64,000 nt of DNA from a virus (taxonomy: Duplodnaviria; Caudoviricetes). The position numbers and the translations under genes were made by a program. This document shows positions 6,824 to 58,337 of this stretch, piece after piece. The notes beneath the pieces are model-generated. The model was not told the DNA's origin, ran no database searches, and saw only the letters and a program-made list of their open reading frames with translations. The first letter of the stretch is position 1. Each line of letters starts with the position of its first letter. The stretch lies in the IMG/VR virus record IMGVR_UViG_3300033072_000529. One strand, given 5' to 3'.

Positions 6824-9265
6824 CTAGAGCTTTTCGAGTTGAAGCAACCGCTTCTGCAAAGCCTTTCCAGTGATGCGGCTTTGGGGGGATTGCTCAATCT
6901 CAGCAAGGCGCTGTCTCGCGATCTGAGCGTCCAACACATCTTCAGCACCCTCTAACGCTGCCTGCTCAACCTTTGCCGCCCCTATCAATTCGTTGCGCAC
7001 TGCCGTAATTATCTCTGCGCTCTCTGGAAGAAGGAAGGGGGCGACGCGATCTGGAGTGAGCTTGGCCCCGTAATTGAAGCGCCAGCGTTCTCGGCGAATT
7101 ACTGCCGCCGCCACATAAAGCATTTCAGGAGGAACTCCCGGGCGGGGCAATAGAAGCAGGTTGTCGCTGGAGGCACCGCATGGCCACTCTTGAACGTGCG
7201 CCATCCCCATGCTGCCAGTTCTTGGAACCGTGACAAAAGGCGGCTTGATGAGGGAGTCGAAAAGATAGAATCCGTGACAGCCGTTGTCGTCGCCGCTGGA
7301 CGATATGACAGGACTGACACCCTCCCCGAGTCCGTCTTTAGACTCTAGCTCGTTTTGACCGTAAAAAATATCGAAATAAGCACCAATAGTACTCCCTGCG
7401 GTTTTTGGGGTCCGGCGCTTTTGGCCGATATATTCACGGTAGTCTCTCGGCGGGTTGCTGGTCGTTCCCAGCATCGAGGATAGCTCTACAAACTTGGGGG
7501 CGAATTTGGTGGTAAGCGCGGTCTTGCTGCGAATTACAACGCCAACCTCATCTAAAATTTCGTCAAGTGACAACTGCTTGGCTGGGATGTAGGCACCTGG
7601 CCGCCATTCACCGTCCGGCTCGATGGTCGCCCAGCCGCACAATCCATCAACGGATTTATGACCTTGGTACGCTTCCAGCACAGTCTCGATTTGTGATCCC
7701 TGCCGAGGCGTGCGAACGTTTTTCCGCAGGCGAAAACCGTCATTCTCGATTCGAGAAAAGAAAACAGGCTGGCTAAAATTATGGGGTACTCCTTGGGTGA
7801 CTAGAAGAACGTTGGTGGTGGCGCTTGCGTATGGCAGAAACAGCTCTTCCGGCAAGCTGATAATACCGTTGAGAGTGTGGTGTTTGAGAAGCTGACTTCT
7901 CCAATTCCCTTTGGACGCTTTAACCAGCAGTTGCATCGGCACCACCGCGCCTAATTTACCCCTCCGCTTCAGTGCTTCGAGACCGCGATCTATGAAATCC
8001 TCAGCCGGAGTGTCAGTATCCCTGTGAGGGAAGGGCGGGTTTAACAACGCAACATCAGCCTTTCCAAGCGGGTAGCCGTCAGAACTGAAACAGTCATCAT
8101 TAACGATGCCGGTTGAGCCGTCTCCGCGCAGAATCATATTTGCCACGCAAAGCGCGGCAGTAATAGGCTCAGTCTCATACCCGACCAATTGCTTTTTAAC
8201 CACCTTCACGACTTGGGTGCGGGAAAGATGGCCGACCTCCATAATACGGTTCATGCCAGCGATGAGGAACCCTCCGGTTCCACAGGCGGGGTCAATCACA
8301 ATGTCATCCTTGCCGATGCCGCAAAGGTCAGAAATAAACGATGTGATGTGATGAGGGGTGAAATACTGACCGATGGTATTGCCGCCTGTATATCGGAAGA
8401 ACGTCTCGTAAAGCTGGCCCAAATAGTCATGCTCAGCCGTGAGCACGGGGACATTTAGACGATCTAAGATGGAGATGATCCGGCGAATTTTTACAGCCAG
8501 CGTCGCGTTTGCTTCGTCAACATGAAGGCTCTTTGCAAGCGTCGCTTTCCCGGCCTTCCAGAAGGCTTTTTCACACGCTTGATTGATATCGGAAAGGACG
8601 TTGTCAGGTTCGCGCCTGATCTTGCCCTGCGACTGCCATAGAGCCAGCATTATTGCCCCCATGATCGCAGGACGCAGCGCATCTGTGACCTTCGATTCCC
8701 TCAATAGCCGGTTGATTTCGTCGGCATGGCCGGACAGAACCTCAGGAGGCGGAATGGATGGGCGAATCTCTGTGGAATTCGAGGCCCTGATGGCGTCTAT
8801 GTCCAAGCGGTTTGGAATCCACCCGATGGGGTTGCCATCGTAGGTAATCATGGCCCACTTTCTGCCAGTCCACTTTAACACACGCACTGCAAAATTGTCT
8901 TCGCTCGCGCCCGCAACGGCAATGGCCAGGGGTGAATACCCGGCTTCGATGCAGGCCGCCCCGTAGTCTTCAGTTGCCTCTTTGATGGCCAGCATCAAGT
9001 CTGAGGGGGAGGCCTTGGCTTCAATGACGGCGCGGGGTTGAAGGGTGGCCCTGTCTATCAGGACGGCCTCTGGCAGTCCATCGCCTCCACGGCCCGATTT
9101 ACTGCGCCCTTTGAATATCTCCAAAAGGTGATCATGGTCTTTATACTCATGCTGCCTCAAAAGCTCCCCCTGAGGAGGGCGGCGCACATCCCAACCTTGG
9201 TCCACAAGCAACCCTGTGAGTAGGTGCTCGGTTCTGACTTCTGCAAATCGGCGAATGGGTGCCAT
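6824..9265 (-). CDS. Fused restriction endonuclease / N6-adenine MTase / specificity domain (type IIG-like)
   Basis: N-terminal PE..IEAK (PD-(D/E)XK-like), GQYFTP, DPACGTGGFL (motif I), NPPF (motif IV) and a C-terminal HsdS/TRD-like region. Confidence 0.88.
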   Translation of the reverse strand: MAPIRRFAEVRTEHLLTGLLVDQGWDVRRPPQGELLRQHEYKDHDHLLEIFKGRSKSGRGGDGLPEAVLIDRATLQPRAVIEAKASPSDLMLAIKEATEDYGAACIEAGYSPLAIAVAGASEDNFAVRVLKWTGRKWAMITYDGNPIGWIPNRLDIDAIRASNSTEIRPSIPPPEVLSGHADEINRLLRESKVTDALRPAIMGAIMLALWQSQGKIRREPDNVLSDINQACEKAFWKAGKATLAKSLHVDEANATLAVKIRRIISILDRLNVPVLTAEHDYLGQLYETFFRYTGGNTIGQYFTPHHITSFISDLCGIGKDDIVIDPACGTGGFLIAGMNRIMEVGHLSRTQVVKVVKKQLVGYETEPITAALCVANMILRGDGSTGIVNDDCFSSDGYPLGKADVALLNPPFPHRDTDTPAEDFIDRGLEALKRRGKLGAVVPMQLLVKASKGNWRSQLLKHHTLNGIISLPEELFLPYASATTNVLLVTQGVPHNFSQPVFFSRIENDGFRLRKNVRTPRQGSQIETVLEAYQGHKSVDGLCGWATIEPDGEWRPGAYIPAKQLSLDEILDEVGVVIRSKTALTTKFAPKFVELSSMLGTTSNPPRDYREYIGQKRRTPKTAGSTIGAYFDIFYGQNELESKDGLGEGVSPVISSSGDDNGCHGFYLFDSLIKPPFVTVPRTGSMGMAHVQEWPCGASSDNLLLLPRPGVPPEMLYVAAAVIRRERWRFNYGAKLTPDRVAPFLLPESAEIITAVRNELIGAAKVEQAALEGAEDVLDAQIARQRLAEIEQSPQSRITGKALQKRLLQLEKL

Positions 9266-10249
9266 CTACTTGACCCCTCCTTTCGGGCGACGCAGCATAA
9301 GCCTTTTCCCCTCCATCTTGCGGATACCCCCAACGGTGCGCTCTCCATCGCTTTCTCCTCGGGTGTTGTACTTGTAATCCAGTTCCGCAAAATAAAGGGC
9401 CGTGTGCCGCTTGCTGATGTGGTGGTGAGTTCCGTCGAGGGCTCGCTTGGAGTTTCCGAAGAACCCCTCCGCCGAATTTGTCGTGGTCAACTCTCCAGTA
9501 AGACGGTCACGGCGGGCGTACTCTTCCACTGAATGGTTGACGGTTTCGTGGGCCGCAAACACGGTTCCCGCCTTTTTATAAACAGGGGACTCGTCAGTGT
9601 TGAGCGTGGCATCTGTCGCCACATGCCTTTTCAATATTTTAGTGATCTTCTTTCCTGAAACCATTTCTACCACTTGAGAACGCACGCGACCACCGCGCTC
9701 TACCAGCGAAACAACGGCGGTTTTGTTCTTCACGTAGCCACGGCCACGCCCGCGAGCTTTCCCTCCAATGTAGGTTTCATCAGCTTCCACAGTGCCTTTA
9801 AGCAGGTCGGTCGGTTCGGAGTCACGCAAAGCGAACCGAATGCTGTGGCACAAGAACCAAGCTGAGCGGTAAGACCCGATTTCAAGCTGCCTTTGAAGTT
9901 GGAGGGCGGAAATCTGGGTTTTGCTGGCACACATCATGTAGAAGGCGATGATCCACTTGTTGAGGGGAATATGTGAATCCTCCATTACAGTGCCAACTGT
10001 CACCGTAAACCCCTGTCTGCATTCGTTGCACTTGAAGAGTCCATTACGGATTTTCTTTTCAGGGTTAGGGGCTATTTTGTAGATGCTGGCCTGCTCTGCA
10101 TTGCCGCAATGTGGACACACAGGACCGGAGGGCCAGCGCTGCTTCTCGAAGTACTCCCGCGCGGCATCTTCATGCGAAAACCGCTGACAAATCTGCATGA
10201 GTGTCAGTTCTCCTTTTGGGTTTTTGGCGCTAGCAATTTGCGTGTGCAT
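9266..10249 (-). CDS. IS1595 (ISXO2-like) DDE transposase
   Basis: Zn ribbon CPHC..CNEC; VEADETY, TDES..Y, VNHS and TNSAEGFF motifs. Confidence 0.95.
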   Translation of the reverse strand: MHTQIASAKNPKGELTLMQICQRFSHEDAAREYFEKQRWPSGPVCPHCGNAEQASIYKIAPNPEKKIRNGLFKCNECRQGFTVTVGTVMEDSHIPLNKWIIAFYMMCASKTQISALQLQRQLEIGSYRSAWFLCHSIRFALRDSEPTDLLKGTVEADETYIGGKARGRGRGYVKNKTAVVSLVERGGRVRSQVVEMVSGKKITKILKRHVATDATLNTDESPVYKKAGTVFAAHETVNHSVEEYARRDRLTGELTTTNSAEGFFGNSKRALDGTHHHISKRHTALYFAELDYKYNTRGESDGERTVGGIRKMEGKRLMLRRPKGGVK

Positions 10250-21796: not shown

Positions 21797-24235
21797 ATGA
21801 CTAATAAAATAGAATTAAACGAGGACCAAACGAGTGCATTGGCTAAATTACAAGATTTTGTCAATGTGAGTAGAAACACGTACTTCTTATTAGAGGGGAT
21901 GGCTGGAAGTGGCAAAGCTCAACCTATTCATTCTAAAATATTGACTCCACATGGGTGGGTTAGGATGGGAGATATCCGAGTCGGGCAGGTGATATATTCT
22001 ACAAACGGTGAATGTACTACTGTTACCGGGGTGTACCCACAGGGTGCAAAACAGGTTTATAAAATATCTTTAACAGATGGGTCTATAGTGGAGTCATGTG
22101 CTGACCATTTGTGGGCAGTGTCAGAATTATCAAGGGCAAAATATAAAAACAAAACTGCACCTTTGAAAGAGTTAATGGATTATAAGATCGTTAGATCAGA
22201 CGGTGAAACACGATATAAATATACATTACCTTATAATAATACACCTATTGAGTTTGCTCCTCAATCATCGAATTTTATTCACCCCTATATATTGGGTTGT
22301 TTATTAGGGGATGGCGGTATAAGTCAAAATGTGGTAGCTCTGCATAATAATGATTTACATATAATAAATCGCGTACGCGATTTATTAATGGACGAGTATC
22401 AACTGACTAAAGAATATATATCCGATTCTGGTTTAGCAGCTAAGAAATGTATGTGCCACCGAATTGTAAATAAACATAAGATTGGACTTAATGCATATGG
22501 AAGAAACATAAATAGTTTGGGATTACGTGTGACTAGTGATTTGAAATTCATACCGGAATCATATATGAGAGCGAGTATATCGGATCGTATAGAATTATTG
22601 CAGGGTATATTTGATACTGATGGAACCGTAGATAAACGAACGGGTGTAGCCTTCATAAATAGTACATCATATAGATTATTAAATGATGTTAAAGAATTAG
22701 TGTATAGTTTGGGCGGTGCCACTACAACTATTACGAAAAGTAAAAAATCTGGATATAGAAATAAACTAGGAGTATTTATCAATACCAAGGATTGTTATAG
22801 TTTGCGTATATATTTCAATAATGGGATATATCCGTTTACGTTGGAACGCAAATTGAGATGGTTTAAACAGGCAAAGGCATATGCTTTTAATAGAAAAATA
22901 GTAGAAATAACACCATCTACTATAGAGCCATGTATATGTATATCGGTTGATCATCCTAGTAAATTATACATCACCGATGATTATATATTAACTCACAATA
23001 CTACCACTACTACTGAATTTATCAAATGGTTAAAAACTAAAACCTTGCATAATAAAATAGTCATGACTGGACCCACGCATAAATCTGTAAAGGTTATGAA
23101 GAAAATGAATACTATTCCAGGTATATCATTTAATACCTTACATTCTCTCCTAGGGCTAAAGCATCGTATTACCGCAGACGGTAGAGAAGTATATGAACGC
23201 GACAAGTATGATAAATCAAAACTACAGGAATATAGTTTCGTAGTATGTGATGAAGTATCCATGTTAAGTGATCAGTTATTCCATGAACTGAATAATCAAA
23301 ACTATACAGGTATAAAAGTTCTATTCGTCGGTGATCGTAATCAAATCAATCCTATTGATCATGTTCACAGTATTCCTATGCTACAAGATAAACGGGATTT
23401 GTATGAAATAGGGTATGCACAATTAACTAAAATAGTTCGACAAGCAGAAAATAATCCTATTATCAAAATATCCCAAAGTGTATTAAATGATAATTTTGAA
23501 TTTAAAGTGGGGGATTCTATGATGGGTGTAGATTCTGGAGTGGAAATAGTAGACTCTAAGAATGCAAAACGCTTGACCCAACTATTACAAGAATATTTCG
23601 TATGTGATGCATTCGATAAAAATGCCGATCATTGTCGAGTAGTAGCATGGAGAAATAAATCAGTCGATTATTTCAATAATATCATTCGCAAAATGAAATA
23701 TGGCAATACCTGTAGAAAAATTGTTGTAGGGGAAAAGCTACTAGCGGATAAACCTATCAAGGATATAATGGTATGTGCAGAAGAAGATGAATCAGAATTC
23801 CAAATTTTATTCAACTCCAATGAGGATTTGATAGTTCGCTCTATCAAAGAGGATGTGAAAACATTATACGGTAAACAATATTACTTTTATGAAGCAGAAG
23901 TGGAAGGGGATACTAAAGAAGGATTGATCCATATTCTAGATGAACGTAGTGAGAAAGATTATGCAACTGCCTTGAAAGCAATGGCAAATGATGCTAAGAC
24001 TGAAAAAGATTCCTACATCCGTGTCCAGAAATGGAAAAAATACTTCGGGTTCATAGATAATTTTGCACAAATCAAATATGCATATTGCTGCACATGTCAC
24101 ACTGCCCAGGGTAGTACATATGAAAATACAATGGTGTTCTACACGGATATCATAGCTAACTGGAATAATGAAGAATGCAAGCGTATATTATATACCGCAG
24201 TAACTCGTCCTCGCCATAAATTATATATTTTCTAA
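21797..24235 (+). CDS. dda: Dda-like SF1B helicase containing an intein
   Basis: GMAGSGK|T, PTHK, DEVSM, GDRNQI, RQ, TCHTAQGST, YTAVTR. Confidence 0.92.
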   Translation: MTNKIELNEDQTSALAKLQDFVNVSRNTYFLLEGMAGSGKAQPIHSKILTPHGWVRMGDIRVGQVIYSTNGECTTVTGVYPQGAKQVYKISLTDGSIVESCADHLWAVSELSRAKYKNKTAPLKELMDYKIVRSDGETRYKYTLPYNNTPIEFAPQSSNFIHPYILGCLLGDGGISQNVVALHNNDLHIINRVRDLLMDEYQLTKEYISDSGLAAKKCMCHRIVNKHKIGLNAYGRNINSLGLRVTSDLKFIPESYMRASISDRIELLQGIFDTDGTVDKRTGVAFINSTSYRLLNDVKELVYSLGGATTTITKSKKSGYRNKLGVFINTKDCYSLRIYFNNGIYPFTLERKLRWFKQAKAYAFNRKIVEITPSTIEPCICISVDHPSKLYITDDYILTHNTTTTTEFIKWLKTKTLHNKIVMTGPTHKSVKVMKKMNTIPGISFNTLHSLLGLKHRITADGREVYERDKYDKSKLQEYSFVVCDEVSMLSDQLFHELNNQNYTGIKVLFVGDRNQINPIDHVHSIPMLQDKRDLYEIGYAQLTKIVRQAENNPIIKISQSVLNDNFEFKVGDSMMGVDSGVEIVDSKNAKRLTQLLQEYFVCDAFDKNADHCRVVAWRNKSVDYFNNIIRKMKYGNTCRKIVVGEKLLADKPIKDIMVCAEEDESEFQILFNSNEDLIVRSIKEDVKTLYGKQYYFYEAEVEGDTKEGLIHILDERSEKDYATALKAMANDAKTEKDSYIRVQKWKKYFGFIDNFAQIKYAYCCTCHTAQGSTYENTMVFYTDIIANWNNEECKRILYTAVTRPRHKLYIF
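21917..22999 (+). mobile_element. Class-3 (Ala1, WCT) intein with LAGLIDADG endonuclease, 361 aa
   Basis: Starts AQP after Walker A GK and ends THN|T; DHLW, CICISV, ILGCLLGDG and LLQGIFDTDG. Confidence 0.92.
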
Positions 24236-52846: not shown

Positions 52847-54187
52847 ATGCCATCTTTTGTAGATAATACCAGTAGTACTCCAATACCTACAGTTCAGCCC
52901 CTTCAACCTCATAAGGACATGTATATACATAATCCTTTGATTTTTCGATTTGGTAAACCTTTTAGAAATAATTATCATGGGGAAATGCGACCGGTTCAAC
53001 CTCAAATCAAGTTACCTATTCCAGGGGAAGGGCAACCTAGAATTCTACATTATCTAGCAGATCAAGGTGGTTGTGCATTCTGGAGACTTATATGGCCAGG
53101 AGATGAACTGCTTATGCATGATAAAGGTGTAGTCATGTCTATGCATCAAATGATACTGGATGCGCAATTCTATGAGCATATTGATGCTATTCGGATTCAA
53201 CGGCAATGCACCCCTCAACAACTACAATTTATAAAGTTCCTACGCGATGTATCAGAACAATATAAAAAACAGGGTAAGAAAGGATTTAGAATTATATATG
53301 AAGCGGATGACTTAGTTGGTCCGCTAGAATGTCTACCAGAGTATAATGCGTGTAGAGAGGCATTTGCTGACCCTAATCTCATAAACACTGTTAAGGAAAT
53401 AGTCAGTTATTGTGATGAATTCACAGTTCCGAGTGAAGTGATGAAGCAGCACTATAGAAAGTATCTTGATTATGACCGTATTACTATGATACCTAATTAT
53501 GTCCCTAGATCATGGTTGGATAAGGGTGTAACGGAATATGAAAAGATTAAACAATATCGATTGAATAAAAAGAAACCCCGTATATTATATGCTGGTAGCT
53601 CAACACATTTCGATTTATTGAATAAGACAAACCAGAAAGACGATTTCGGGCATGTGGTAGATTACATTATTGATGATATCATGAATAAGAAGAAATATCA
53701 GTGGGTATTCATAGGGGGCGTTCCTCTAAGACTTCACAAATTCATACTTGACAAGACTATTGAATATTATCCATGGTCTAATTTGTCAGAGTATCCGCGA
53801 ACCTTGAAAGATGCAGGGGCTCAATTAATGATTGCGCCTTTAGCTGATAATGTGTTTTCTAGAGCAAAAGCCAATATAAAACTAACAGAAGGCGGAGCAA
53901 TGGGTATACCCGTGATAGCACAAAATCTAGATTGCTATAAGGGGTGGAAGTACTCGTTTAATACGGGTGCACAGATGATGCAAATCATTGCTGATACCTT
54001 AAGTAGTGAAGTTCAATATACTAAAGCTGTGAGATATGCTAAGGAGTATACAGATCAATATTGGCTAGATGAACACTTAGACGAATGGGTTAAAATATAC
54101 ACGACACCATACGGATCAAAGGAACGTCAAGATAATGAATTTCTGGTAGCAAATAATCCTGAACAGTTCTTGACAATTGAAGGATAG
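52847..54187 (+). CDS. GT-B glycosyltransferase
   Basis: GCAFWR, YEADD, IAPL..NVFSRAKANIKLTEG. Confidence 0.8.
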   Translation: MPSFVDNTSSTPIPTVQPLQPHKDMYIHNPLIFRFGKPFRNNYHGEMRPVQPQIKLPIPGEGQPRILHYLADQGGCAFWRLIWPGDELLMHDKGVVMSMHQMILDAQFYEHIDAIRIQRQCTPQQLQFIKFLRDVSEQYKKQGKKGFRIIYEADDLVGPLECLPEYNACREAFADPNLINTVKEIVSYCDEFTVPSEVMKQHYRKYLDYDRITMIPNYVPRSWLDKGVTEYEKIKQYRLNKKKPRILYAGSSTHFDLLNKTNQKDDFGHVVDYIIDDIMNKKKYQWVFIGGVPLRLHKFILDKTIEYYPWSNLSEYPRTLKDAGAQLMIAPLADNVFSRAKANIKLTEGGAMGIPVIAQNLDCYKGWKYSFNTGAQMMQIIADTLSSEVQYTKAVRYAKEYTDQYWLDEHLDEWVKIYTTPYGSKERQDNEFLVANNPEQFLTIEG

Positions 54188-54204: not shown

Positions 54205-56343
54205 ATGAGTTATCGAAATGTTGTATATGACCGCAAGAAATCTGTAATACACCACTACCTTTGGGATGACCAAGGGAACCCCACGGAGAAGCAGGTATAT
54301 TTTGAGCCATATATATACCTGCCTTCTGCGGATAAAACAAAATTTCATGCAACTGGAATCGATGGAATGCCATTGATCAAAAAGTCATTCAAAAATGAAT
54401 GGGAACGACAAAAATATGTAAAAGATTATAAAGGGAAGATATACTTTGATTTACCCGCTACCCAGCAATATCTTCTAGAGAATTATTATTCCTGGGATAT
54501 TCAGGAATTGACCAGACATCCTCTACGTATATATTACTTCGACATCGAAGTAATTGCAGATGAATTTCCTGATGCCAAGCAGGCGAAATACCCTATTAAC
54601 TGTGTTACTATATATGATACCATCCGAAAGAAATATTTCGTATGGGGTGTAAAGCCATATGATCACTGGTCAGCAGCAGACCATCTGAAAGACATCGGTC
54701 CCGAAGATATTGTATACGAATATTGCATATCTGAGACGGCATTGTTGAAGAAATTTCTTCGATTTTGGCGAGCGGATTTTCCTGATTTGATAGTAGGCTG
54801 GAACAGTTCAACTTTCGATATACCATATATTGTCAATAGATTCAACACTGTATTTGGTGATGACAAAGCCAATCAATTATCACCCGTTGACAATGTGTAT
54901 GGTAAAGAGGTAGTGCACCAAAGGTTTAAAACCGTATATACTGAATATACTATAGATGGAGTATCCCATCTAGACTATATGTTTCTATACAAGTATTTCA
55001 CTCCTGGGGAACGCGAAAGCGATGCCCTTGATTTCGTGTGTTATTCTGAAATCAAGATGGGTAAGTTGGATTACGGCAGCATGTCACTCCATGATCTATA
55101 CCATAAAGATTGGAATAGATTCATTAATTATAACATTTGGGACGTTCATCTGATGGTTATGCTGGATGCGCAGAAAAAATATATTGATATTGCCCGATTT
55201 TCTGCATGCTATGGATTTTGTAATATAAACAAGGCTATGGGTAAAACCGCCATCATTACCGGCGTATTAGCCAAAGAATCCATGCAGAAGGGAAAAATAA
55301 TCCCTACTCAAACAAATGGATTGAAGGAGAATATTCCTGGTGGTCACGTGAAACAGCCAAAAGAGGGGATGTATGAATACGTGGTATCGTTTGATGCCGA
55401 CTCTCTATACCCATCAACTATCATAACTCTGAATATCTCACCGGAAACCAAAATTGCTAAGGTGATGAAAACGGAGAATGATATATGCACCATATTTTCA
55501 TTTAAAACTAAGACGTTCTTCCAACACCCTAAAAGTGGAATCAAGCAGTTAGCTAGGGATAATGGCTGGGCATTGTCTGCATCCGGTGTATTTTTCACGC
55601 AACATGAAAAGAGTGTGGCTGCGGACTTCGTAGACACTCTGTATGCAAAACGCAAAAAAGTGAAAGCCGAAGGTATACGAAAATTACAATCATTGGATAA
55701 CATGGTGAAAGATTCCGTGGAATATAATGCCACAAAACAGTTGGCATCCCAGTTGGACACTGAACAATACTTGTATAAGATTCTATTGAACTCTACCTAT
55801 GGGGCATTCGCTAATTCTCACTTTGCACTATATGATATTGATTGCGCAAAAGCGATCACTACCACGGGACAATCAATGATCAAGCAGACCGAGAAAATAG
55901 TGAATGATTATGTCTCCAAAGAATGGAATTTATCTAATGTGGACTGTGTTGCAGCAATGGACACGGATAGCGTCGCGGGCGAGTCTACTATCAGAACCAA
56001 TATTGGTACTATGCCCATAGAACAGTTATTCGATGTATATGATCCGTCTAAAGTCTTCTTATTTAAGGAACATGAAGCTATCGATGTATCCGACAGTTTA
56101 TTAGTAGCAGCATACGATCAAAAAGCTAATGCGGTAAAAATGGATAAAGCTAAGTATTTGATCCGTCATAAAGTCACTAAAAAGCGATATAAAATTAAAT
56201 GTAAAGGTAAGGAGATAATAGTTACAGAAGACCATTCTTGTATGGTTATTCGGGATGGTGCGTTATTAACAGTTAAGCCGCATGAAATGTTATTGACTGA
56301 CCAACTGGTGACGATACAGGCAGGTGTCCATTCCGATAAATAG
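54205..56343 (+). CDS. 43: DNA polymerase B (gp43) N-terminal part plus N-intein
   Basis: Exo FDIE, WNS..FD, YN..D; motif A SFDADSLYPS; motif B KILLNSTYG; DTD then SVAGES..TEDHS (intein from 55969); TTGACA-N16-TATCAT promoter upstream. Confidence 0.95.
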   Translation: MSYRNVVYDRKKSVIHHYLWDDQGNPTEKQVYFEPYIYLPSADKTKFHATGIDGMPLIKKSFKNEWERQKYVKDYKGKIYFDLPATQQYLLENYYSWDIQELTRHPLRIYYFDIEVIADEFPDAKQAKYPINCVTIYDTIRKKYFVWGVKPYDHWSAADHLKDIGPEDIVYEYCISETALLKKFLRFWRADFPDLIVGWNSSTFDIPYIVNRFNTVFGDDKANQLSPVDNVYGKEVVHQRFKTVYTEYTIDGVSHLDYMFLYKYFTPGERESDALDFVCYSEIKMGKLDYGSMSLHDLYHKDWNRFINYNIWDVHLMVMLDAQKKYIDIARFSACYGFCNINKAMGKTAIITGVLAKESMQKGKIIPTQTNGLKENIPGGHVKQPKEGMYEYVVSFDADSLYPSTIITLNISPETKIAKVMKTENDICTIFSFKTKTFFQHPKSGIKQLARDNGWALSASGVFFTQHEKSVAADFVDTLYAKRKKVKAEGIRKLQSLDNMVKDSVEYNATKQLASQLDTEQYLYKILLNSTYGAFANSHFALYDIDCAKAITTTGQSMIKQTEKIVNDYVSKEWNLSNVDCVAAMDTDSVAGESTIRTNIGTMPIEQLFDVYDPSKVFLFKEHEAIDVSDSLLVAAYDQKANAVKMDKAKYLIRHKVTKKRYKIKCKGKEIIVTEDHSCMVIRDGALLTVKPHEMLLTDQLVTIQAGVHSDK

Positions 56344-56347
56344 ATTT

Positions 56348-57391
56348 ATGCGTAATAAATACCATCAAAAGACCCATAAAAAATATTGCGATATAGCTGG
56401 ACTCGAATTTGCTAATAGTATATGTGAATATGCCAAAGGTCTAAAAAAACGAGCGTCTGATATGTATGCAATAGTAGATGATATCCTCAAATATGGCGGT
56501 AGTTTGGATTGGAATGGAGTGTTGCGATTATATATGGAGTATACCAGTATTCGCGCTAAAGTATCTGAACGTAAAATGTTGATTCGATATGGTCAAGTCG
56601 AGGGTGCCATTAGATGGCTACAATATAGAACTAAACAGGCGTACTCCAATTCATTGGAATATAAACAGAGCATACACGGATGGACTGAACAAGACTATAT
56701 ATCTTATAATAAGTCTAGAGCGGTGACTAAGGTTAATTTAGTGAATCGTCATGGTGAATTAGAGGGAACTCGTAAATGGAACGAGTATATTGACAGACAG
56801 GCTTTTGCGGGTTGTAAAAAAGAATACTTTATACAGAAATACGGTACAGATAAAGGGGATCAAATATATAGGGAACTGAGTATCAAAAAGACTATAAAAA
56901 TAGACAATTACATTGCTAAGTATGGTGTAGCCGAGGGAACACGTCGTTATATTCATAGATGGAGTGGATCAGCTATGTCTGAATACGTCCATTCTAATAT
57001 ATCTCAAAAAATGTTTTGGCAATTATTAGAACGTATCCCTGAATCTAAACGATATACGGTGTTTTTTGCAGAGAAGAATTATGAATACTTATTTAATCAT
57101 AAGGATATGCATGGAGTTGTATTTGTGGATTTTTATTGTGCCACCACTAATAAGGTCATAGAGTTTTATGGTGATTATTATCACGGTAATCCACGGAAAT
57201 ATGCCGATGATTATTACAATACTCAAATTGGTAAACATGTGGCAGCTATACACGATTCTGATAATAAACGAATAGATACACTTGATGCGCTGTTTGGGGT
57301 TGAAACTTTAGTGGTGTGGGAGTATGATTGGAGAAAACGCCCCGAGGAGATGATTGATAAATGTTTGAAATTTTTGAATTATGATAATTGA
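56348..57391 (+). CDS. Free-standing endonuclease (Vsr/DUF559-like C-terminus) between the polymerase halves
   Basis: VDFY..KVIEFYGDYYHGNP..D..R...LVVWEYDW; four YG..(E/K)G repeats. Confidence 0.8.
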   Translation: MRNKYHQKTHKKYCDIAGLEFANSICEYAKGLKKRASDMYAIVDDILKYGGSLDWNGVLRLYMEYTSIRAKVSERKMLIRYGQVEGAIRWLQYRTKQAYSNSLEYKQSIHGWTEQDYISYNKSRAVTKVNLVNRHGELEGTRKWNEYIDRQAFAGCKKEYFIQKYGTDKGDQIYRELSIKKTIKIDNYIAKYGVAEGTRRYIHRWSGSAMSEYVHSNISQKMFWQLLERIPESKRYTVFFAEKNYEYLFNHKDMHGVVFVDFYCATTNKVIEFYGDYYHGNPRKYADDYYNTQIGKHVAAIHDSDNKRIDTLDALFGVETLVVWEYDWRKRPEEMIDKCLKFLNYDN

Positions 57392-58337
57392 AATACTACC
57401 TATTGAAAGTATAGAACAACTAGATGATTTCCAAGATGAATATGTATATGATATTCAGATGGAAGATGAGACAGATCACACGTTTTTCGCTAATGATATA
57501 TTAGTACATAATTCGTGCTATATTACTCTTAAACCTATATTTGAGAGTAATAAATGGAATTTAGTTGATAGTAAAGGGGATTTGACTCCCGAATATTTGG
57601 AATTAGAAAACAAGATAGGAAACCATATCAATGTTGAAATTGATAAATGGGCTAGGACTCAGTTGAATTCTAAAGACCCAAGGTTTCACTTCAAACGCGA
57701 ATCAGTCTGTCCTAAAGCTATATGGGCAGGCAAGAAACACTATATATTGTATATTGTCAATAAAGAAGGCAAGAAGATGAATGACCTGAAATATTCAGGA
57801 TTGATGATTACTAAGAGCACGTATTCCAAAGCTGTGACGGATATATCTCGTAGAGTAGTAGAAATCATAATGGGGGTGTTCTCTAAATCGGAAGCGAATG
57901 AGAAGATATTCCAGGCATATGATAATTTCGAGTCTTTAACTTTAGTAGATATAGCTGAAAGAGCATCTATTAAAATACTCAACAAATATGAGGGGTTAAA
58001 TAGAGGTCTGGAAGTGGCTAAGGGTACAACTCGCCCTGCGAAGTTTGTTATATATCATAATGAACTGTTGAAGATGCTGCATTTAGAAAATAAATATAAA
58101 AAAATAACAAATGGCAGCAAAATTAAAATGGTTAATGTCTTGGATAACAGATGGAATATACCGGGTATTGCCTTCCAAGACGAACTCCCCGAAGAGTTTG
58201 GCTTACAAGCCGATTATGAGTCTGCCTTCTTCAAAGGCGTTATCAAAGCCCTTACACCCATCTACGATGCATTGGGCTGGGAAATTCCTAACCCTCGTAT
58301 CCGATATACAGTGGATTTACGAGAGTTATATAAATAA
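57381..58337 (+). CDS. 43: C-intein (44 aa) plus DNA polymerase B C-terminal part
   Basis: YVYDIQM..HTFFANDILVHN|SCYI, followed by FKRE, KKHY and LKYSG. Confidence 0.95.
   Translation: MIIEILPIESIEQLDDFQDEYVYDIQMEDETDHTFFANDILVHNSCYITLKPIFESNKWNLVDSKGDLTPEYLELENKIGNHINVEIDKWARTQLNSKDPRFHFKRESVCPKAIWAGKKHYILYIVNKEGKKMNDLKYSGLMITKSTYSKAVTDISRRVVEIIMGVFSKSEANEKIFQAYDNFESLTLVDIAERASIKILNKYEGLNRGLEVAKGTTRPAKFVIYHNELLKMLHLENKYKKITNGSKIKMVNVLDNRWNIPGIAFQDELPEEFGLQADYESAFFKGVIKALTPIYDALGWEIPNPRIRYTVDLRELYK

Follow-up and report, generated by a model that had tools for sequence, protein, structure and literature searches.

A fractured DNA polymerase gene with an Aes123 PolB1-type split intein in motif C and a Vsr-like endonuclease gene between its halves in an uncultured Caudoviricetes clade

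Introduction

The Aes123 PolB1 locus, found in the Aeromonas phages Aes123, Aes508 and AS-gz (JN377899, JN377894; PDB 9HTH; PMC11923092), shows a Ser1/Ser+1 intein with an NX histidine, inserted in polB at DTD|S and divided into fragments of 120 and 39 aa. A gene annotated as a "putative VSR endonuclease" lies in the gap and overlaps the start of the C-intein (IntC), and the polymerase of Aes123 is additionally split into gp43A/B1. The CP21, LCGC14 (120/42 aa) and GOM (120/46 aa) PolB inteins show Ser1/Ser+1, the typical split site, non-conserved cysteines and an NX histidine, and CP21 has a homologous endonuclease gene in the gap and an SCY flank. Trans-splicing in vitro is documented for the inteins of Aes123, CP21, GOM-OPS-1 and LCGC14 (PMC11923092, PMC12707363), and the efficiencies of the four assayed homologues are, in ascending order, about 30%, 40%, 59% and 95%. 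The split PolB intein of MIJ3/PA5oct (PMC6892783) also interrupts polB at this site and shares the three-gene layout, with a gap gene annotated as HNH (560 aa).

Fractured genes were described by Dassa 2009 (PMC2677866) as enzymes with a split intein and a free-standing, same-strand Vsr-like endonuclease gene, which typically overlaps IntC by 6-69 bp and has a T4 late promoter element upstream. Those loci contain Cys1 inteins, in gp41, NrdA/J, IMPDH, DnaE, ligase and terminase, and spacers of 27-51 nt with hairpins; a hairpin in the endonuclease 5' region, present in 15 of 16 loci, is common and not universal. The EDxHD enzyme I-Bth0305I (PMC3239194; PDB 3R3P) is intron-encoded and shows a C-terminal Vsr-fold nuclease behind a putative DNA-binding N-terminal part with NUMOD motifs.

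Results

Gene distribution of the split polB locus

The locus described here belongs to a 64,000-nucleotide stretch of a Caudoviricetes virus (IMG/VR record IMGVR_UViG_3300033072_000529), hereafter the window, in which no tRNA genes were found. It shows three same-strand ORFs with the Dassa 2009 fractured-gene layout, encoding PolB-N fused to the N-intein (IntN), a free-standing endonuclease, and IntC fused to PolB-C, in frames 0, 1 and 2, respectively. The first ORF (54205-56343, +) encodes 712 aa, 588 of PolB-N and 124 of IntN, reads through AMDTD|SVAGES at the extein/IntN junction and ends in TAG. The third ORF (57381-58337, +) encodes 318 aa, 44 of IntC and 274 of PolB-C, with VHN|SCY at the junction. 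The intein interrupts PolB in motif C, with DTD on one side and Ser+1 on the other. The gp43-like N-extein (54205..55968, +; PF03104 and PF00136) contains the 3'-5' exonuclease domain and polymerase motifs A and B, and ends with the DTD of motif C; PolB motifs lie at residues 111, 198, 309, 397, 525 and 586, and its residues 1-588 are 57-58% identical to intein-free PolB alleles. The C-extein (57513..58337, +) starts at Ser+1 (SCY), contains the KKHY and YSG motifs, and is colinear with the intein-free alleles from residue 1, with 54-55% identity. The rejoined exteins (588 + 274) give 862 aa, the length of the intact, intein-free L001 PolB.

An earlier note on this DNA had proposed a polB fractured by a naturally split Ser1/Ser+1 intein in motif C, with a 124-aa IntN at 55969-56340 that carries a TEDH block B and is followed by a stop, an out-of-frame endonuclease ORF between the halves, and a 44-aa IntC at 57381-57512 ending in VHN|SCY. 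This description holds throughout: the IntN limits are exact to the base, the endonuclease ORF (347 aa) is in the next frame and IntC in the third, the motifs are intact and the exteins colinear. The two polymerase pieces are very probably joined post-translationally by the split intein.

Motifs, charge and cysteines of the split intein

IntN with its TAG (55969..56343, +) shows Ser1, an NX motif (Arg66-His67), the N3/block B motif Thr86-x-x-His89 (TEDH at residues 86-89), Cys78 and Cys91, as placed by TIGR01445, PDB 9HTH and a 21-homologue alignment. IntC (57381..57512, +) shows Asp24 and His33 (C2/block F) and His43-Asn44 (C1/block G), as placed by TIGR01443 and PDB 8CPN/8CPO/9HTH. All the motifs of a class 1 Ser1/Ser+1 intein are intact across both fragments, and D24, H43, N44 and S+1 are invariant among 19 homologues. 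The intein-HMM search suggested in the earlier note gives 30.4 bits for IntN against TIGR01445 and 24.4 bits for IntC against TIGR01443, both above the curated cut-offs (24.5 and 15.6). IntN and IntC match the Aes123 intein 9HTH with E values of 1.2e-14 and 0.0074, and tblastn finds the Aes123 intein homology at E 5e-13; together with the homologous gap gene, the 9HTH match bears out the kinship with the split PolB inteins of Aeromonas phages. The NX motif, a feature of Ser1 inteins in the form R/K-His (PMC10189870), aligns with K-H of Aes123, and the fragment lengths are those expected of an intein divided at its endonuclease position, approximately 100-125 aa for IntN and 35-46 aa for IntC.

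Judged by sequence identity to Aes123 (31% global to 38% local for IntN, 44% for IntC), the locus is a new allele of the Aes123 PolB1 family. It shares the site, the junction residues, the NX histidine and the charge polarity with Aes123 but differs in fragment length (124/44 aa), in the two Cys of IntN, which Aes IntN lacks, in having the N-extein as a single 588-aa piece, and in its exteins, which belong to a different, uncultured clade. Identity with a characterised allele was rejected: the intein is 32%/47% identical to CP21, and the lengths and printed sequences of LCGC14 and GOM are unlike those here. Those three inteins have been assayed.

IntN has 19 K/R and 17 D/E (net +2, pI 8.5) and IntC 0 K/R and 13 D/E (net -13, pI 4.05). 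The very acidic IntC claimed at the outset is thus real, and the basic IntN holds mainly for the N2 lobe, since residues 51-124 have a net charge of +8 while the whole fragment has only +2. The polarity itself, which had been presented as special, is the family norm: Aes123 shows +8/-11, most family members are alike, and gp41-1 and gp41-8 are also N-positive and C-negative (PMC2677866). MIJ3/PA5oct shows the opposite polarity (N -14, C +5). The idea that charge segregation is an adaptation to being split finds no support, since the same pattern is present in contiguous alleles (P0004: N2 +8, C -13).

Cys78 and Cys91, both at variable alignment positions, and a Cys at +2 of the C-extein were absent from the earlier note. 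With its Ser1/Ser+1 junctions and two IntN cysteines, the intein is therefore cysteine-independent by its junctions and not cysteine-free in the strict sense of both fragments lacking Cys. Comparable Cys could be removed in the PolB16, CP21, LCGC14 and GOM inteins.

Signals and junctions around the endonuclease gene

Only 4 nt separate the IntN stop from the endonuclease ATG, unlike the longer Dassa 2009 spacers, and there is neither a Shine-Dalgarno motif before this ATG nor a significant hairpin in the endonuclease 5' region (z 0.21 against shuffles), which leaves hairpin control of the start unsupported. A T4-late-promoter-like TAAATA (56337..56342, +) overlaps the IntN stop and lies 5 nt before the ATG. 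TAA(A/G)TA is present 5-7 nt upstream of the endonuclease start in 6/6 clade alleles, versus 15 of the 2826 ATGs of the window (0.5%), and also precedes other genes at the same spacing, including the tail-tube-like gene at 1306. TAAATA would probably yield a leaderless late endonuclease transcript. The 3' end of the endonuclease gene overlaps the IntC start by 11 nt (57381..57391, +); in L024, L027, L028 and L030 the two genes overlap by 11-17 nt, again at a K-x-L-x-F-L-N-Y/ATG junction.

The Vsr-like endonuclease

The gap gene (56348..57391, +) encodes a free-standing, Vsr-like (EDxHD-type) putative homing endonuclease of 347 aa, assigned from homologues in the same gap, a structure model and residue conservation; an alternative GTG start at 56324 would give 355 aa. 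It is 29-32% identical to the same-gap genes of Aes123, Aes508 and CP21. The model (pLDDT 90) shows helical repeats of 27-30 aa at approximately residues 70-206, followed by a C-terminal nuclease domain (214-347), an order comparable to that of I-Bth0305I, and matches Vsr 1CW0 (Z 10.9), 3HRL (Z 10.7) and I-Bth0305I 3R3P (Z 9.7; rmsd 3.6 over 95 residues). In profile searches of the PDB, Vsr and 3HRL are the only matches and are weak (E 0.04-0.06); a single-sequence PDB search with the nuclease domain gave no real match, and Foldseek found no match at E <= 0.001, Vsr and I-Bth0305I being among its weak rows.

D261, H279 and D305 correspond to Vsr D51, H69 and D97, and E272 to the Glu at Vsr F62. 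Among 90 homologues, D261 and H279 are invariant, E272 is kept in 88 and D305 in 86. The position of the first EDxHD Glu, placed by the S-x-x-E pattern of the homologues and not by structural overlay, is Ser219 here and S, A or E in 43, 21 and 21 homologues; Ser or Ala (64 of 90) is thus the subfamily norm. This replacement makes nuclease activity less certain, and the protein is therefore described as a Vsr-like enzyme that may work like EDxHD, without matching it strictly.

The protein is intein-associated, and helical repeats take the place of the NUMOD motifs of I-Bth0305I; no NUMOD Pfam domain was found among the 90 homologues. Modelled alone, the repeat region reaches pLDDT 93.5 and shows no clear match to solved structures (best Z 3.6), which does not imply a new fold; in the structure atlas, it matches only hypothetical phage proteins or DUF559 proteins of phages. 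Viral contigs scanned with the single endonuclease sequence gave no match, and no biochemical study of this repeat-bearing subfamily was found in the literature searched.

Distribution of the cassette among relatives

The same layout, split site and a homologous Vsr-like endonuclease gene are present in cultured phages of Aeromonas (Aes123 and Aes508), Campylobacter (CP21) and Tenacibaculum (PTm1), and are annotated accordingly in GenBank. Within its own clade, five alleles (L024, L027, L028, L030 and L032) show the three-gene layout, the split site and a homologous endonuclease gene. The distribution is patchy, and the related alleles span all states, from intein-free and fractured to those that have lost the endonuclease or are contiguous. 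L026 has no endonuclease gene and L029 has a 794-bp deletion in it, the intein being still split in both; the endonuclease is consequently dispensable for the split polymerase. The 99%-identical strain L030 keeps the gene. Between alleles, the spacing downstream of the IntN stop ranges from an overlap to 31 nt. In the extein tree, intein-free L007 is sister to fractured L024 (100/98) and intein-free L001 and L006 are sister to fractured L027 (100/99), the pattern expected if the intein was repeatedly gained or lost. Split alleles are interspersed with contiguous ones, with at least three changes in the intein tree (built without SRB7757 and SCTP-2) and at least five in the extein tree (built without CP21, a frameshifted record), gains and losses being indistinguishable.

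Discussion

The locus is, with high probability, an Aes123 PolB1-type fractured gene of an uncultured T4-like jumbo phage, whose products trans-splice to an 862-aa polymerase and whose late-expressed Vsr-like endonuclease most likely homes the cassette. PolB-N-IntN and IntC-PolB-C would be translated separately, the basic N2 lobe of IntN would capture the acidic IntC, and both would fold into one Hint domain. Class 1 splicing with oxyester chemistry, by Ser1 N-O shift, Ser+1 attack and Asn44 cyclisation aided by the NX histidine, would then join DTD to SCY. The endonuclease, expressed late from its own promoter, would most likely act in co-infected cells, cutting intein-free polB close to the DTD|S codons; recombination repair would then copy the three-part cassette.

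The halves might instead associate through the intein fragments without ligation, as a non-covalent heterodimer comparable to Aeh1 NrdA or gp43A/gp43B. T4-like phages have such split enzymes (PMC2677866), Aes123 itself carries the intein-less gp43A/B split upstream, and both DTD aspartates are on the N-piece; however, all splicing residues are retained here and in the homologues, four of which splice, and from established PolB structure an unspliced intein would occupy motif C, so this arrangement is highly improbable. A single contiguous endonuclease-bearing intein, translated through ribosome bypassing or a pair of programmed +1 frameshifts and then spliced in cis, would suit three touching or overlapping ORFs in successive frames, and bypassing was named as an alternative by Dassa 2009 (PMC2677866). 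It is scarcely credible given the variable gap after IntN, the promoter-like motif of the endonuclease, the own ATG of IntC in all alleles and the persistence of the split in L026 and L029; that no longer, fused endonuclease was found is weak evidence in the same direction. Assembly errors at both frame breaks are a practically negligible prospect, because the layout recurs in cultured phages and five clade alleles, with both breaks identically placed in assemblies made independently (43-58% protein identity) and with conservation of the promoter-like motif and of the overlapping junction.

Whether the endonuclease of this cassette is active is a separate question from splicing. That it is an inactive passenger en route to loss, as the Ser at the first motif Glu and the loss or deletion of the gene in related alleles could suggest, is rather unlikely: the ORF is full-length, the D, E, H and D residues are kept, the promoter-like motif is retained, and Ser219 follows the subfamily norm and is no private decay.

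Elements of this kind have been published before and serve as protein-ligation tools, and one more allele of a large family holds little surprise for a specialist. The earlier suggestion of a new orthogonal ligation tool does not stand as a novelty, since assays exist for four homologues and the family already has a published orthogonal pair; such use of the present allele is plausible. It would have a modest practical value: few split inteins are both efficient and cysteine-independent (CLm and LCGC14, as of PMC12707363), and about 35% identity to Aes123 is the distance at which LCGC14 is orthogonal. A more far-reaching reading combines an active, uncharacterised Vsr-like subfamily, which would read DNA by modular repeats and drive a clade cycle from intein-free through fractured and endonuclease-lost to contiguous mini-intein alleles, with an intein that, once its Cys are removed, would be efficient and orthogonal to CLm/Aes and LCGC14. 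We regard this combination as distinctly unlikely; if true, it would provide a third thiol-independent ligation tool. What the present analysis adds is the late-promoter-like motif before the endonuclease gene, the helical-repeat domain, for which no solved structure is clearly related, and the range of states among related alleles. With its intein-free targets, full cassettes, the 99%-identical strain pair L029/L030 and contiguous mini-inteins, the clade constitutes a testable series for the origin and decay of split inteins.

Organization of the fractured polB locus

The polB locus, on the + strand of the window, shows three ORFs which occupy three different frames. The first ORF (54205-56343) encodes the N-terminal part of a B-family DNA polymerase (PF03104 and PF00136), and runs through the DTD motif into a 124-aa N-intein (IntN) that ends in a stop codon. 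The second ORF, encoding an endonuclease of 347 aa, starts 4 nt past this stop and overlaps by 11 nt the start of the third ORF (57381-58337), which encodes a 44-aa C-intein (IntC) with a His-Asn end, followed by Ser-Cys-Tyr and the remainder of the polymerase. ORFs and intein halves are as the earlier note described them, a split-intein polB with an endonuclease ORF in the gap, and both halves exceed the NCBIfam curated intein cut-offs. Uninterrupted PolB relatives, 54-59% identical to the window PolB, are found in ten viral loci, and in all ten the residue aligned with C-extein residue 1 is directly after that aligned with N-extein residue 588; by this alignment, the split falls at a real insertion site. 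The rejoined exteins (588 + 274) give 862 aa, the length of the intact PolB of viral locus L001, and contain the exonuclease and polymerase motifs.

Frame breaks created during assembly are a very unlikely explanation of this layout, because five independent alleles from its clade (L024, L027, L028, L030 and L032) share this arrangement of three genes, as do phages in culture from Aeromonas (Aes123 and Aes508), Campylobacter (CP21), Tenacibaculum (PTm1), Vibrio (VPALA) and Klebsiella (KP13-7). The IntC-PolB-C proteins of the five clade alleles are 43-58% identical to that of the window, and the junction at which endonuclease and IntC overlap is conserved. The kinship with split PolB inteins of Aeromonas phages, proposed earlier, holds: the Aes123 record is annotated as 'putative N-intein / putative VSR endonuclease / putative C-intein', and its gap endonuclease is homologous to that of the window (E 2e-27).

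Splicing motifs, relatives and charge pattern of the intein

The window intein contains the splicing motifs Ser1, Thr86-x-x-His89, Asp24, His33, His43-Asn44 and Ser+1, as well as an Arg-His NX motif, which is specific to Ser1 inteins (PMC10189870). Its top PDB match is 9HTH, which over the aligned part is identical in sequence to the Aes123 intein (L014). Identity to Aes123 is 31% (global) or 38% (local) for IntN and 44% for IntC, and the closest allele found, that of L030, is 55% identical. Trans-splicing efficiency is about 30% for Aes123, 40% for CP21, 59% for GOM-OPS-1 and 95% for LCGC14; the latter shares 35% identity with Aes and behaves orthogonally to CLm, a derivative of Aes (PMC11923092; PMC12707363). 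The window intein is none of these four characterised alleles, since its sequence matches none of them. The window allele very probably splices in trans. Its IntN contains two cysteines, and a cysteine-free version would therefore require editing.

IntN has a charge of +2 overall and +8 in the N2 lobe, and IntC of -13. Cyanobacterial DnaE split inteins show the opposite polarity. The reversal highlighted in the earlier note is seen as an N-positive/C-negative pattern, but it is not distinctive, as Aes123 (+8/-11) and most family members, contiguous alleles included, share it. The MIJ3 PolB split intein (L018, 3501-5784) is inverted with respect to the rest of the family (IntN -14, IntC about +5), and is a naturally occurring candidate orthogonal partner. 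Both polarities are reported among the split inteins of Dassa 2009 (PMC2677866).

Gap endonuclease and its expression signals

A structure model of the endonuclease was built from 90 homologues (pLDDT 90). The structures closest to its C-terminal domain are those of Vsr (Z 10.9), NGO0050 (Z 10.7) and I-Bth0305I (Z 9.7), the last a homing endonuclease. Residues D261, E272, H279 and D305, kept in 86-90 of the 90 homologues, align with Vsr-like catalytic positions. The first Glu of EDxHD appears replaced by Ser219, a substitution shared by roughly half of the subfamily. The window protein would work like the EDxHD enzymes but without the first motif residue; endonuclease activity is likely, with less certainty than trans-splicing. 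The N-terminal part is modelled as an array of helical repeats with 27-30 aa spacing, for which no clear relative was found among solved structures; given the bipartite endonuclease design, this array is presumably the DNA-binding part.

TAAATA is located 5 nt upstream of the endonuclease ATG. TAA(A/G)TA occurs 5-7 nt upstream of the start in six of six clade alleles, against 0.5% of ATGs across the window; because of their shared ancestry, the six alleles do not count as independent observations. The same geometry, without an SD motif, is found at other window genes, including a tail-tube-like gene. Throughout the window genes lack SD motifs; in ten ORFs TAAATA precedes the ATG by 5-7 nt, and no ORF has it at 0-4 or 8 nt. 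The spacing and the absent SD suggest leaderless late transcripts in the window, and we infer that the endonuclease gene would be expressed in this way. Most Dassa 2009 loci have a hairpin (PMC2677866), whereas no significant one was found at the window endonuclease gene.

Genome context and additional inteins

By motif, and from the Pfam labels of syntenic loci, the polB neighbours are gp46-like, glycosyltransferase-like, UvsX-like and gp41-like genes, and on this basis the window belongs to a T4-like phage. Records place its proteins on a contig of up to 272 kb, and the nearest polymerases of cultured phages share only about 33% identity with the window PolB. A high-GC island (6824-10249, - strand; 48-54% vs about 37%), flanked by phage structural and other genes, encodes an 813-aa N6-adenine methyltransferase and an IS1595 transposase, and may be host DNA acquired by the phage or a chimeric join.

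The glycosyltransferase-like gene directly upstream of polB (52847-54187) is intact in the window and fractured in three relatives (L006, 2-2882; L027, 1-1297; L029/L031, 1-2046). Their split intein shows Cys1/Cys+1, with IntC ending in Lys-Asn before the Cys, and an ORF between the halves, which is GIY-YIG by Pfam in L029 and itself in two pieces in L006. A literature search found no paper on an intein in a glycosyltransferase host gene. The Dda/RecD-like helicase of the window (21797-24235) shows a LAGLIDADG domain and AQP directly after the P-loop GSGK, and probably holds a contiguous Ala-start intein of class 2 or 3. In L036, a PolB-C ORF (P0047, 4501-5838) opens with a C-intein of about 160 aa without block A, 4.4 kb and ten ORFs from a PolB-N fragment; P0047 is probably an atypically split, PolB16-like allele. 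The 788-aa gp41-like helicase of L024 (7220-8728) has a faint Hint match and probably contains another intein.

Mobility and family assignment

The extein tree places intein-free alleles as sisters of fractured alleles, at fully supported nodes, and intermingles split with contiguous inteins. Other alleles show contiguous mini-inteins of 158-165 aa at the same insertion site (P0004 and others), and in L026 the two halves of the split intein are separated by 33 nt, without an endonuclease. L029 and L030 are 99%-identical strains: L030 has an intact glycosyltransferase and a full PolB endonuclease, and L029 carries a fractured glycosyltransferase and an endonuclease lacking 794 bp, deleted at an 8-bp ATGTCAGA repeat (L029 4346-4353 vs L030 3552-4353). 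This pattern is consistent with cyclical homing through gain, loss of the endonuclease and loss of the intein, on trees that show no direction for the individual changes. On every feature that can be tested, the window locus belongs to the fractured-gene family of the Aes123 PolB1, and it would work like its members.
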